The notes under the pieces: generated by a model
Told to the model about the DNA's origin: nothing
The model's input: only the letters and a program-made list of their open reading frames with translations
The model's database searches: none
DNA from: a virus
IMG/VR virus record: IMGVR_UViG_3300027770_003399
Location: 1-64,000 of that record
Reading direction: 5' to 3' (one strand)
DNA length: 64,000 nucleotides
Part shown: positions 28,330-43,538 of the stretch, in pieces
Layout of the letters: every line of letters starts with the position of its first letter
Numbering within the stretch: position 1 is the first letter of the stretch
Position numbers and translations under genes: made by a program

Positions 28330-29006
28330 AGTGGCTAATTAAATATTAAACTGGCCAATTATTTTTTAGGGTTCGTATCGTTTATGGACCACCCCCGACT
28401 TTATCGCAAAAACTCGGGAGTCCTTTGGCAAACAAAAAAACCCCCTCTCTTGCGGGGGACCTTCTATTGGGGGGGTAGCCAATACCATAGAGGGGTCTTA
28501 TATTGGAGCCCCTCTTGCGGAGCCCCTTCTATTGGAGGGATAGCCAATACCATAGTAGACCCGACCCGTATGTTGAGACCCGAATATAAGTTCTTACGCT
28601 GTAAGGAGTTACGACAAGCTTTCGCCCGCCCGAAAGTTGTAAGTTCTTTGGTACCAACGACTTAGAGCAAGTGCCCTGTGCAAATATCGTGCCAAACTTT
28701 CTACAAAAAAAAATTTTATTTCGCATTCTACTGATACCTTATTGGGGGGGACCTCTATTGGGGGGATAGCTATATCGTAGGTGGGGTATCGTAAACGCAA
28801 CTCGATTGCATTCTATATATCGACAACTTCTCAACATTTTTGAGCACAAAAAAAAAGATTTTTTGAGACGTAAAGCCTTGCTACCCAACAGGTTACGTCA
28901 AAGCAAAAACATTTTTATATTTCCTATTGGACAAAGCGAATGATGTCGATATAATACGTAGAGAAGAAGAAAAGAAGAAAAAGAAAAGAAAGAAAAGAGA
29001 AAAACA

Positions 29007-29261
29007 ATGAATATCGAAAAGATCAAAAAGACGTACGGAACAGATTGCCAGACTTGTGAGCAAGTATGGAATCAAGCGGTTGAAGCCTACAAGAACGACT
29101 TCACCTTTGCTGAACATGTTGACGAGTTCAACAATGATCGTTTTGAGTTCAACTCGCCTGAAGCGATTGAAGCCTACGAACTCAGCGAATACTTTGAAGA
29201 ACACGTTGAAGAATATTATCTTCCAGAGGCTTGGGAACAATACGATTATGAAACAAGATGA
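29007..29261 (+). CDS. Small acidic early protein
   Basis: Follows a promoter and purine-rich leader; Glu/Asp/Tyr-rich. Confidence 0.6.
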   Translation: MNIEKIKKTYGTDCQTCEQVWNQAVEAYKNDFTFAEHVDEFNNDRFEFNSPEAIEAYELSEYFEEHVEEYYLPEAWEQYDYETR

Positions 29262-29292
29262 GTCTAGTAAAGAAAGAAAAGAGAAAAGCATT

Positions 29293-29544
29293 ATGAAAAA
29301 AAACAACGGTCTATCAAAAGTATTTCTAGGAAAAGGTTTCTTTCATATGGAAGAAAAGATGGTAGCGGTAGTGGAAGGAATCGAGACGCCAGTGTTCTGT
29401 CATGGCTCTTTCGGATCCTACTTGATTGTGAGTTCAACCCATTGGAAAAACGGAGGGTTGCGAACTATCGAAGAAGATTGCGTTGTGAAAGGTTTAGCTC
29501 ATCAAACGATTTTAGACTTTCATGGAAAAAGGAAAACAGTATGA
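29293..29544 (+). CDS. GFFHM-family early protein, paralog 1
   Basis: MKKNNGLSK...GFFHMEEKMV...VFCHGSFG; paralogs at 33131 and 33759. Confidence 0.7.
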   Translation: MKKNNGLSKVFLGKGFFHMEEKMVAVVEGIETPVFCHGSFGSYLIVSSTHWKNGGLRTIEEDCVVKGLAHQTILDFHGKRKTV

Positions 29545-29759
29545 ATAACTTTGACGATGTTCCTCTAGCGTTGACAACTATCATTGACAACAGAAAAGAA
29601 AAAGAAAACCTATCATTCTTTGAACATTTTGATATGGATGCTTTTCTATTAGATCAGGATGAGTCCGAGTCCGACTATATACCGGGCTATGATGATGGCG
29701 AATGGGATAATAACGAAGAAGTATATGATACATTCGTAGACGTTAATGAGCGGGCGTGA
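29541..29759 (+). CDS. Small acidic protein, paralog 1
   Basis: MNNFDDVPLAL...ESDYIPGYDDGEWD...EEVYDTFVDVNERA. Confidence 0.65.
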   Translation: MNNFDDVPLALTTIIDNRKEKENLSFFEHFDMDAFLLDQDESESDYIPGYDDGEWDNNEEVYDTFVDVNERA

Positions 29760-30100
29760 TAACTACTCCTTGCGGGGGGGGGATAGTGTACAAACGCTAC
29801 CCCCCTATGAGGGGATACCATTACCCCCCCAACGGACTAGAACTTAAACCCTTACAGCGTAAGAACTTACGACAAGCTTTCGCCCGCCCGAAAGTTGTAA
29901 GTTGTTTGATACCAACGACTTAGAGCAAGTGCTCAGAGCAAATGTTGTGCCAAACTTTGTACAAAAGATTTATTTTGTTTTGGCATGAGAAATTATTCCG
30001 AGAAATTTCTTTTTAGCTATTGCAAAAGCCTAGAAGTGTCGATATAATACGTAGAGAAGAAGAAAAGAAGAAAAAGAAAAGAAAGAAGAAGGATTTTAAG

Positions 30101-30328
30101 ATGAATATTTTTGTGATAGTTGGTTACATTGCGATCTCCGCACTAGTTTTAATCGGTGTCGGCAATGTATTGTTTTACCTTGTCATTCAAGTGCTTGGCC
30201 GTCTTGACAATATGATCCAAAAAGGTGGATACACTTTTCATGGTTGTATTGGAGAGGCACCGAAGATGCCGGAAGTCTGGAAAGATTCCAACGGAGATGA
30301 GTGGACAATATCTTCTTGCGAAGATTGA
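30101..30328 (+). CDS. Small membrane protein
   Basis: MNIFVIVGYIAISALVLIG hydrophobic start after the purine leader; similar start at 32379. Confidence 0.5.
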   Translation: MNIFVIVGYIAISALVLIGVGNVLFYLVIQVLGRLDNMIQKGGYTFHGCIGEAPKMPEVWKDSNGDEWTISSCED

Positions 30329-30673
30329 TTGTTACATGATCTGCGGGTCAGATAGTATCTTCTGGGGGATAGTGTACAAACGCTACCCCCCTATGAGGGT
30401 ATACCATTACCCCCCCAACGTACTAGAACTTAAACCCTTACAGCGTAAGAACTTACGACAAGCTTTCGCCCGCCCGAAAGTTGTAAGTCCTTTGATACCA
30501 ACGACTTAGAGCGAGTGCCCTGTGCAAATACCGTGCCAAACTTTGTGTAAAAGATTTATTTTGTTTTGGCATGAGAAATTATTCCGAGAAATTTCTTTTT
30601 CCCTATTGCAAAAGCCTAGAGATGACGATATAATACACAGAGAAGAAGAAAAGAAGAAAAAGAAAAGAAAGAA

Positions 30674-41291: not shown

Positions 41292-41469
41292 AAGAAAGAG
41301 TGTCTATGAATTATAGTATTGAAACGTCTGAAAGTATACAGGAAGATATACTTACTTGTATTGAGGGGTTTTCTGTCAAGGGGAAGATTACAGATATTGA
41401 ACGGCTGAATGATGCTTTATGTCAGATTATTGTAGACAGAAGGAAGTTATTAAATAAAGGAACTTTGTA

Positions 41470-41808
41470 ATGGGAAAATACTATGTTACTTGTGGAACAT
41501 TGGAAGTTATAGTTCAGGCAGATAATCCCCAACATGCAGTTTGTACTGCATTAGACCAAGCAAATAAAAATGACGAATTAGATGATGGTATAGTTGTAGA
41601 TGAAAGAGGTTTTAGGTATCTTGATCCAGTAAAGGTAGCTAGAAACGAAGCTCCGCCAATGTCTGATGTAGTAAAATGGTTATGGGAAAATGATAATATA
41701 GAAAAATCGGAAAATGTTATGTTCTTTGTACCACAACATTATTTTAGCTTGGAAAATTTTATGGAAGTTATGGGTGATGATGATGATGATGATTTTGAAG
41801 ATGAATAA
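41470..41808 (+). CDS. Hypothetical protein with acidic tail
   Basis: Co-oriented ORF. Confidence 0.5.
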   Translation: MGKYYVTCGTLEVIVQADNPQHAVCTALDQANKNDELDDGIVVDERGFRYLDPVKVARNEAPPMSDVVKWLWENDNIEKSENVMFFVPQHYFSLENFMEVMGDDDDDDFEDE

Positions 41809-42063
41809 ATAGTGGTGGCCCTAAGTCCTTTGTGCTTAAACACTTAGGACAAACGGGCGGGGCCCCGAAATTTGTAAGTTCTTTAGTACCAACGACTTAC
41901 GACTCTTAAAATATTTTTATTTTTTCTAAAAGAATTATTGTTATTTGGCACGGGAAATTATTCCGAAAAATTTCTAAACTAGGGCTTGCATTAAGTCGAT
42001 GATATGGTAGAATCATGTTATGGGAACGAATGACGGTAAACACTTTTTGAAAGGGATGATGCT

Positions 42064-43008
42064 ATGAGTCATGCAGTAGAGACGATGTTTTTTGTTCGAG
42101 AGACCCCTTGGCACGGGCTTGGGGTAAAGTTGGAGGAAGCACCGACTGTGTCGGAAGCGATTGTCGCTGCTGGTCTCGATTGGACTGTAGGGTTGAAAGA
42201 CCTGTTCACCGCCGAAGGTCAACCAGTTCCAGCAAAGGCGACGTATCGTGAGACGGACGGGTCTATTCTGGGTGTTGTTGGCCCACGGTATAGCCCGCTC
42301 CAAAATGCTTCGGCATTTGACTGGTTTCAGCCTTTTATCGACTCCGGCGAAGTATCGTTGCATACTGCCGGTAGTTTGAACGAGGGTTGCAAGGTATGGG
42401 TGTTGGCCGAGTTAAATCGTGAAAAGTCCGAGATCGTGAAGGGTGACGAGATTGCAAAGTTTGTACTCTTGTCAAATTCTCACGATGGTACGACCGCGAT
42501 TAGGGTCGGGTATACCCCGATCAGGGTGGTATGTGCAAACACGATGGCGATGGCCCATAGTTGCAAGGAATCTAAGCTGTTGCGTGTTCGACATACAAAG
42601 TCGAGTGCTCAAAAGCTCGAAGATATACGAGGCATTATGAATAACATAAACGCCGAGTTCGAGGCAACTGCGGAACAGTACAAATATCTTGCAAGCAAGA
42701 TGTTCAATAGTGCTGACCTTCTTAAGTATGTTAAGATCATTCTGGACATTGAATTGTCTACTCCGAGTTCTGAGATTAAAACCAGAACAAAGAATATCAT
42801 GAATGATATACTATCAAGGGTCGAGGGGCCAAAGCAAACGATGGCGGGTGTTAATGGTACATGGTGGGCCGCTTATAATGGGGTTAATGAGTACCTCAAT
42901 TATGAGAAGGGTCGAAGTGCTAATAACAGACTGGACTCGTTGTGGTTCGGGCTGAATGCTAACAGTAACAAAAGAGCTTTTGATACTGCACTAGCACTGG
43001 CTAGCTAA
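42064..43008 (+). CDS. DUF932 family (phage/plasmid-like) protein
   Basis: MSHAVETMFFVRETPWHGLG...AAGLDWTV, TAGSL, LLSNSHDGT, TPIRVVCANT, WAAYNGVNEY, SLWFG. Confidence 0.88.
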   Translation: MSHAVETMFFVRETPWHGLGVKLEEAPTVSEAIVAAGLDWTVGLKDLFTAEGQPVPAKATYRETDGSILGVVGPRYSPLQNASAFDWFQPFIDSGEVSLHTAGSLNEGCKVWVLAELNREKSEIVKGDEIAKFVLLSNSHDGTTAIRVGYTPIRVVCANTMAMAHSCKESKLLRVRHTKSSAQKLEDIRGIMNNINAEFEATAEQYKYLASKMFNSADLLKYVKIILDIELSTPSSEIKTRTKNIMNDILSRVEGPKQTMAGVNGTWWAAYNGVNEYLNYEKGRSANNRLDSLWFGLNANSNKRAFDTALALAS

Positions 43009-43013
43009 TTCGA

Positions 43014-43087
43014 GGGGGTGTAGCTCAACTGGTTAGAGCGTCGGCTTGTCACGCCGAAGGTTGCGGGTTCGAGTCCCGTCACTCCCG
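43014..43087 (+). tRNA. tRNA-Asp(GTC)
   Basis: GGGGGTG/CACTCCC acceptor; TCGGC-TTGTCAC-GCCGA anticodon arm; GGTTCGAGTCC T loop. Confidence 0.93.
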
Positions 43088-43538
43088 CTTAATTTCACAA
43101 AACCGAGAGTCGTAAACCCTTACCACCAAAGGACTTACGATTTTCGGGCGGGGGCAAAATTTTTGTAAGTTGTTGTGGGATAAGGACTTATGAAAATTAT
43201 CTCAATTTCTTCAGACTTAGGCTCTTGACATTTGCTCTAAGTGTCGATATACTAGTAATGGAAGTTGTTGGTGTGTATGGGTTTAGGAAGATTTCTAAAA
43301 TGACTTATGGAAAGGGGATCGGTCGTAAGTCTAAATCTTACAAAATTAAATATCTAATCTTACCCATCTTAACATATCGAGATCAAGTCTCATAACAGGC
43401 CACTCTACCCGGCCACAAATTTTAACCATAGTCAGGATTTTTCAGAGGCCCCTTTTGTTATTGCTAATCCCCCCGGATTGGTGGGCTTGGTGATAGTCAG
43501 CGAGATTCGTAGACCCTTTTATTTTAAGGAATTATTAA

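Follow-up and report, generated by a model that had tools for sequence, protein, structure and literature searches.

Paired dyads at a fixed spacing upstream of sigma70-like promoters in an uncultured lake phage and its relatives

The double-dyad array and its gene setting

The 64,000 nucleotides (64 kb) analysed here, hereafter the window, form the first part of IMGVR_UViG_3300027770_003399, a linear 122,120-bp phage record of the IMG/VR database with a CheckV completeness of 86%. The record belongs to an uncultured lake phage in which an array of double dyads, the element under study, spans 28.6-43.2 kb. Leftward structural and packaging genes, including three Mtd_N fibre genes, a T4-type large terminase, an ERCC4-type nuclease, an HNH nuclease, and gmd, extend to 24.6 kb, and rightward genes start at 25 kb. 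The array itself is divided into approximately 15 units, each with one to four small genes that are mostly without known function; DUF932, DUF7227, Kyano_Gp96, DUF7249, a LexA-type DNA-binding domain, and two tRNAs are represented among them. When the 16-kb region was compared by megablast with 50,697 phage records, no match was obtained, and a full-text literature search with the arm sequences of the dyads matched primers only.

Each repeated module consists of two 25-bp dyads, A and B (also numbered dyads 1 and 2), separated by a 28-bp middle or spacer, and was recovered in a repeat search as a 15-copy family of 83 nt. The initial annotation had described 15 paired dyads at an invariant 53-bp spacing, each with inverted 9-bp arms around a 7-bp core. 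All 15 starts were found, with dyad B beginning 53 bp after the start of dyad A in 15 of 15 modules (14 strong and one degenerate), and the 9-7-9 layout was seen in all copies, the arms reaching 11-13 bp with the flanking CG or GACG. The inverted arms, on the other hand, proved to be poor palindromes, being perfectly complementary in only 4 of 144 dyads (72 modules from 19 sources). An alignment of the 72 modules revealed the outer TAA/TTA and the inner TT/AA as invariant dyad positions. In the whole 122,120-bp record, the pattern TAAG-N17-CTTA occurs 15 times, always within 28640-43166, as against 3.25 occurrences expected from shuffles. In most copies, dyad B is followed downstream by a conserved stretch, an AT-rich tract, a TTGCAA-17-TATAAT promoter, and a purine-rich leader.

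Module 1 (28587-28664) carries dyad A in flipped orientation relative to the others, followed by the 28-bp spacer and dyad B. Modules 2 to 5 are located at 29845-29922, 30431-30508, 31515-31592, and 32646-32723, and are followed by module 6 (33505-33582), the inner spacer of which is inverted. Modules 7 to 9 occupy 34161-34238, 34769-34846, and 36120-36197. The central GG of the spacer reads CC in module 10 (37183-37260), after which come modules 11 (38512-38589) and 12 (39067-39144). Module 13 (40417-40494) is the copy with degenerate arms, reading CAAACCCTC... and CAAGTTCTT...AAGACTTTG, and the array closes with module 14 (41822-41899) and module 15 (43113-43190), the latter immediately after the tRNA-Asp gene (43014-43088).

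The small inversions reported in the initial annotation were all reproduced. At 28587, where a flipped core had been noted, the whole 25-mer is the standard dyad A in reverse complement, with two bases different; the middle at 33530 and that at 31540 agree at 22 of 28 positions when one is reverse-complemented and at 16 of 28 in the forward direction; and the spacer centre changes from GCGGGGGCCCGC to GCGGGCCCCCGC at 37183 and 40417. Whole dyads are not confined to one orientation with respect to the promoter: dyad B, whose asymmetric core, TGATACC, is strongly conserved, was counted 40 times forward and 7 times reversed, and in the reversed dyads the asymmetry of the arms turns round together with that of the core. 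The flips are best read as palindrome-mediated small inversions in the course of evolution, neutral for a duplex site, since they affect whole dyads or the interior of the spacer; they would be tolerated because the sites, as we propose, are read as duplex DNA.

Two further repeat features lie in the array. The stretches before dyad A (29766-29840, 30352-30425, 31436-31510, and similar ones) consist of alternating G-runs and C-runs (GGGGGG...CCCCCC...GGGG...CCCCCCC) that allow two mutually exclusive pairings, with a TGTACA palindrome in the loop and no U-tract in any of them; by their sequence they look like alternative hairpins at gene ends. Three tandem 64-bp repeats containing TAGTCAGCGAG are found at 38860-39051, with single copies elsewhere in the array at 34686 and 43450.

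Spread of the module and its helical phasing with promoters

The strict dyad B pattern was found in 28 other viral contigs, and a looser arm pattern in at least 120 IMG/VR contig stretches. Among 185,579 bacterial and archaeal species genomes, the strict pattern was matched by only seven small contigs of metagenome-assembled genomes (MAGs), L029-L035, labelled as Micavibrio, Planctomycetaceae, Flavobacteriales, Thalassolituus, and Gammaproteobacteria. All seven carry paired dyads, all but the shortest (L035) share array genes with these phages, and L032 additionally has the conserved genes of the packaging side. These contigs are probably pieces of phage assigned to bacterial genomes in binning, and hence uninformative about the host.

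Among the spacings measured in the first 28 related loci, 42 equal 53 bp and 27 equal 52 bp, with a constant value in each phage, and a larger second set added spacing classes of 51, 50, and 41-42 bp (the last two from locus L080 onward). Conservation of the spacing in homologues, on which the initial annotation had made its proposal depend, was therefore borne out, each lineage keeping its own fixed spacing. A comparison was also made with five related full records, one of them a complete 238-kb genome with terminal repeats (G005). Four of the five hold arrays of 5-14 paired modules and the fifth has single dyads only; in the complete genome, the array lies mid-record. The relatives share approximately 50% identity in the terminase and 63-85% in the capsid protein, yet dyad B often shows no difference at any of its 25 positions.

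Nearly every module is followed by TTGCAA or TTGACA, a gap of 16-17 bp, and TATAAT, i.e. a strong sigma70-like promoter with an AT-rich upstream region, placed before small open reading frames. The promoter of the repeat families, TTGCAA-17-TATAAT, is exemplified on the plus strand at 30020-30048; ten further promoters of the TTGCAA type (matching at 9 or 10 of 12 positions) are found at 30606, 31691, 32822, 33680, 34336, 34942, 36296, 37323, 37676, and 38652, and promoters with other hexamers at 28928, 39219, 40526, and 43225. The gap between dyad B and the -35 hexamer is usually 95-98 bp in this phage (97 bp in module 2) because an extra element separates dyad B from the AT-rich tract. The remaining gaps measure 62 bp in both module 10 and module 11, 74 bp in module 12, 34 bp in module 15, 31 bp in module 13 (promoter at 40526), and 263 bp in module 1, for which the nearest strong promoter downstream is that at 28928. 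A full repeat promoter devoid of a dyad module is present at 37676-37704, before the LexA-like gene; promoter and module are therefore separable.

The position of the dyads relative to the promoter was further investigated in the related loci by taking the best TTGACA-16/18-TATAAT match within 150 bp of each module as the promoter. In the first set, a match scoring 9.5 of 12 or better was present for 63 of 91 modules, on the side lying in the direction of the genes, and the gap from the end of dyad B to the -35 hexamer was seen to cluster at 18-20, 30-32, 40-42, 51-52, 62-63, and 70-74 bp. Counted as 46 unique genome-distance points, this set gave R = 0.46 at a period of 10-11 bp (Monte Carlo p = 0.0006). 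An independent set of 48 new contigs with 69 points peaked highest, over periods of 6-16 bp, at 10.6 bp (R = 0.45), and none of 3000 random sets reached this peak. The dyads thus keep a fixed rotational setting relative to the promoter.

Other conserved sequence lies between module and promoter. In most relatives, an AAACTTT box is found 12-14 bp past dyad B, between this dyad and the AT-rich tract; in the window phage (e.g. 29951-29957), it is displaced by, and overlaps, an inserted sigma54-like box that is considered below. A further dyad, TGAC-N7-GTCA, overlaps the -35 hexamer (TTGACCTAACGTGTCA) at L003:8423, L014:3560, L020:914, and L025:1808 and 3991, and from its sequence looks like a separate promoter-proximal operator in several relatives.

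The interpretation we favour, with somewhat more confidence than doubt, is that the modules are phased double-stranded protein-binding sites controlling a subset of strong early promoters.

Alternative explanations of the module

The dyads might instead be hairpins of RNA or single-stranded DNA (ssDNA), serving as terminators, insulators, processing sites, or stabilisers at the 3' ends of cassettes in the manner of PeSL elements, an account we consider a poor prospect. It draws on the constant location of the modules between the end of a gene (immediately past a tRNA in three cases) and the promoter that follows, on the succession of G-runs and C-runs in the spacer as in PeSL stem-loops, and on the lack of canonical terminators in the array, where terminator-like sites are at chance level (14 canonical intrinsic terminators against 11.8 +/- 3.3 expected) and something else may stop read-through. 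The chance-level count itself also speaks for protein-binding sites. When base pairing was assessed in the 72 distinct modules, oriented by the direction of the flanking genes, the arms paired less well than shuffled arms: under a three-hairpin model, 80.1% of cells pair, compared with 82.2 +/- 0.5% once the 3' arms are shuffled among modules, and under a long-hairpin (attC-like) model 80.0% compared with 81.3%, with 500 of 500 shuffles pairing at least as well as the observed modules in either case. The covariation score fell under the shuffled mean in both models (484-500 of 500 shuffles were at least as high), and arm positions 4-7 displayed no covariation. The low arm pairing arises because the two arms of a dyad nearly always differ in type (TAAGTCC/TAAGTCG in 34 dyads and TAAGTCC/TAAACCC in 26); moreover, a C-C or G-G mismatch at pair 7 of dyad B is kept in 52 of the 72 copies. 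Changes compatible with G-U pairing are present on both strands, the counts of G-U versus A-C showing no consistent strand bias, and the flipped copies would alter the loop and turn G-U pairs into A-C. The middle, at 79% G+C in genomes of 35-45% G+C, can fold, with a mean minimum free energy of -9.07 kcal/mol equal to that of shuffled copies (z ~0); no plus-strand terminator-like site falls inside any module and no U-tract follows the modules. Helical phasing with the -35 hexamer would in any case be meaningless for an RNA element. With no covariation, a spacer no stabler than its shuffled versions, and dyads tolerated in both orientations, RNA or ssDNA hairpins are unlikely and the data fit a duplex site read by a protein. 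It is more improbable still that the dyads are core sites of a site-specific recombinase, lox- or dif-like singly or attC-like as a pair, by which cassettes are excised, inserted, or inverted. The inverted arms of 9-13 bp (including the flanking CG) around a 7-bp asymmetric core, the unlike arm types reminiscent of dif, the location of the sites at cassette borders, and the differing cassette content of close relatives all speak for such a function. The initial annotation, which had proposed recombinase sites or same-face operators, had seen no recombinase gene in the window, and the absence extends to the whole 122-kb record and the five related full records: neither a tyrosine (PF00589) nor a serine (PF00239) recombinase domain was matched at E<=1 in any of the six (G000-G005), the complete 238-kb genome included, with control genomes scoring positive. 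The two cores of a module resemble one another directly (2.26 identities in the same orientation versus 1.81 in shuffles) and not as inverted copies (1.49 identities with the reverse complement of core 2 versus 1.95, i.e. below the shuffles). Of the two proposals, therefore, the recombinase sites are not supported, in view of the missing recombinase and the direct likeness of the cores, whereas the operators are supported by the rigid spacing, the sequence-conserved arms, and the phasing of approximately 10.6 bp in two independent sets of contigs. A segment of 13 bp or 20 bp is too short for inversion by synapsis of two sites, and recombination does not require phasing with a promoter. In the relatives L009 and L014, flanks that are 88-91% identical enclose different genes between conserved regulatory regions, and in this one pair compared, homology breaks in the leader and coding parts and not visibly in the cores. 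The repeats of the array reach 300 bp, so ordinary homologous recombination is sufficient to account for the shuffling of cassettes.

Another alternative invokes the sigma54-like -24/-12 boxes, TGGCAY-N5-TTGC, one of which lies on the minus strand at 29937-29952 and points into dyad B. Twelve are present on the minus strand of the array (28679-39174; 5' ends at 28694, 29952, 30538, 31622, 32753, 33612, 34268, 34876, 36227, 37290, 38619, and 39174), compared with 0.11 expected per strand. Related loci totalling 1.37 Mb contain 70 boxes, of which 43, in 25 sources, are directed at a dyad; the gap is usually 12-16 bp, with 14 bp the commonest value. The dyad protein could accordingly act on the sigma54 RNA polymerase, with the dyads forming a downstream operator or enhancer of antisense transcription (sense in some relatives), and L005, L006, and L010 do possess forward boxes with dyads at a typical enhancer distance. 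We regard this as quite unlikely: most modules of relatives have no box, the boxes of L006 form head-to-head palindromes suggestive of a plain binding site, and in the window phage the dyads are downstream, not upstream, of the presumed start site. The phages, furthermore, encode neither sigma54 (PF04552) nor an enhancer-binding ATPase (PF00158) in any of the six records, beyond a weak AAA+ match in G005. Nor do the dyads of the window phage resemble enhancers (upstream activating sequences, UAS), in which paired dyads stand 80-150 bp upstream of a -24/-12 promoter, given that the box points into them at approximately 14 bp and that no AAA+ activator accompanies them. A bolder and equally doubtful version would have the double dyad and the box rigidly coupled to it at 14 bp form one switch, in which a new kind of phage DNA-binding protein sits just downstream of a backward-facing sigma54 start point and reaches the forward sigma70 promoter in helical phase; every early cassette would then be toggled between sense and antisense through two forms of the host polymerase without a classical enhancer-binding ATPase. 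Lastly, the modules may be architectural sites unrelated to promoter control, be it packaging sites of a protein with a helix-turn-helix (HTH) and a coiled coil, strong gyrase sites, or topological barriers or roadblocks separating highly transcribed units. REP/BIME gyrase sites lie at the 3' ends of strongly transcribed units, as the modules do, and the sole HTH protein shared by the six records is terminase-small-subunit-like and encoded beside the array. Fifteen dispersed pac sites, in contrast, would be unusual, and the array of the complete 238-kb genome is situated mid-record; the HTH protein has no significant terminase fold match, HK97 TerS being ranked 23rd (E = 0.6), and none of these roles predicts the phasing with the -35 hexamer. 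The architectural explanation is unlikely, if less so than the others.

A proposed mode of action and its counterparts in known systems

The regulatory protein-binding site that we prefer to these alternatives calls for a binder. We infer that a protein binds the modules at all and that this binder would jointly regulate this subset of early promoters. It would presumably be phage-encoded, given that the strict motif is confined to viral contigs and to MAG contigs carrying the array and phage-like array genes. The notion of a host factor was set aside, as the strict motif is absent from bacterial chromosomes and the seven MAG matches are best read as phage fragments. The consensus WATCAANNNNTTR of the host factor IHF, read by eye on dyad B, is one base off, and the cores of dyad A have no match.

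In five of five related full records, the dyad-bearing region starts beside two leftward genes, which in the window overlap one another on the minus strand: a sigma-like protein gene (23818-24576), and a gene for an HTH and long-helix protein similar to small terminase subunits (23018-23857). The former is the commonest neighbour overall (24 of 86 module-bearing loci). The latter has an N-terminal HTH-like region, long helices, and a conserved C-terminal tail, DQPFLTPDTVK; its structural model (pLDDT 77) had no significant match in the PDB, and its matches in the protein atlas were viral hypothetical proteins only. These two are the only conserved proteins with DNA-binding features and may be put forward as weak candidates for the dyad binder. 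The commonest gene of the array itself belongs to the phrog_20898 family (37389-37661, plus strand; 19 of 86 module-bearing loci) and encodes a small acidic protein, which in relatives carries the motif CxxC...CxxCWD; the window copy and three of the other 14 aligned relatives lack both cysteine pairs.

Several points weigh against regulatory binding sites of this kind. No binding protein has been identified among the candidates examined. The LexA-like protein (37850-38482) was rejected, being absent from four of five related full records with only its acidic tail matching in the fifth, and so was the phrog_20898 protein, an unlikely DNA binder in that it is acidic and its zinc ligands are optional and lost in the window copy. 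No homologue of HU or IHF was detected in the records searched, nor one of phi29 p4 (PF05464) in the six records. The statistics of the phasing are also open to objection: counted by distinct distance values only, the first set yields p ~0.06 (it was this weakening that led to the repetition on independent contigs), the phasing weakens beyond approximately 75 bp, and regulatory regions that are related to one another do not count as wholly independent samples. A dyad spacing of 50 bp, which is not an integral number of helical turns, is found in one lineage class, and a simple symmetric dimer does not explain the asymmetric TGATACC core of dyad B or its 40:7 orientation bias. Finally, many equally strong promoters have no module, commonly so further right in this and in related genomes; the module is therefore not needed for promoter function and marks a promoter subclass.

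As to how the modules might work, a sequence-specific protein would dock on each of them, most likely as one dimer per 25-bp dyad, at half-sites TAAGTC(C/G)TT whose centres lie 19 bp apart. The two dimers could be held together across the stiff G+C-rich spacer, the 53 bp amounting to about five helical turns in the window phage. With the module upstream of strong host-type (sigma70-like) early promoters, at distances differing by whole helical turns, the protein on the module would be turned toward RNA polymerase, or toward the upstream DNA that the polymerase wraps, in a fixed rotational setting. Our guess is that the effect would be the shut-off or over-stabilisation of near-consensus promoters rather than activation, much like that of phi29 p4 at A2c, an activator seeming unnecessary where the early promoters are already near consensus.

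A 78-bp module with a near-invariant promoter-proximal dyad in at least 120 stretches of uncultured aquatic phage contigs, whose proteins are otherwise only about 50% identical, points to a shared regulator of early (host-takeover) gene expression, and its rigid geometry and helical phasing provide a clear, testable prediction. The motif also offers a cheap marker for the early regions of this phage group and for fragments mis-binned into bacterial MAGs.

Comparison with known recombination sites is invited by the shape of the module. Inverted arms, an asymmetric spacer of 6-8 bp, and unlike arm types are shared with loxP, FRT, and dif, and the arrangement of two simple sites flanking a variable middle at cassette borders is shared with attC. 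In contrast to all of these, the phage modules come with no encoded recombinase, consist of a non-complementary site pair, and show no folded-strand covariation; they are phased with promoters, and their cassettes carry promoters of their own. Cassette borders of integron-like appearance in phages can hence be regulatory rather than recombination sites.

Among regulatory systems, the sites of phi29 p4 at A2c, A2b, and A3 take the form of imperfect inverted repeats, their outer half-sites separated by about two turns, and several lie upstream of promoters. The modules share these traits, and p4 contacts RNA polymerase from upstream, as proposed here for the binder; the resemblance is one of working mode, not of membership. 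At A2c, p4 is reported (Monsalve et al., 1996) to shut off the promoter or hold the polymerase. Through the alpha subunit, p4 represses the strong early A2c promoter, and it recruits the polymerase to A3 (PMC2731898). The phages described here differ in having no p4 homologue, another site sequence, at least 15 copies per genome as opposed to four, a G+C-rich spacer, and a fixed pairing at 50-53 bp. The Fis sites at rrnB P1 and the class I positions of CRP lie upstream of an AT-rich UP-like region at positions differing by whole turns. The modules are placed likewise, whereas their motif matches neither Fis nor CRP, their promoters are already near consensus, and the strict motif is on no host chromosome.

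The closest published kind is that of the PeSL cassettes of T4-type phages, in which repeated units of promoter and stem-loop recombine and the stem-loop has been shown to terminate transcription (Arbiol et al., 2010; PMC2839356). Common to both are many small genes of unknown function, each following a repeat that combines a strong sigma70-like early promoter with AT-rich sequence ahead of it, an upstream sequence of G-runs and C-runs, and repeats that allow the shuffling of cassettes between relatives. The PeSL stem-loop, however, lies in or next to the promoter and PeSLs have no double dyad, whereas here a rigid pair of 25-bp dyads stands 20-100 bp upstream, without a sign of selected pairing and in helical phase with the promoter; nor are these phages T4-type, their large terminase being only ~24% identical to terminases of Bacillus siphophages. 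The element described here is thus a new and widespread variant of phage early-promoter regulatory cassettes, distinguished by its rigid double dyad, its G+C-rich spacer, and its phasing.

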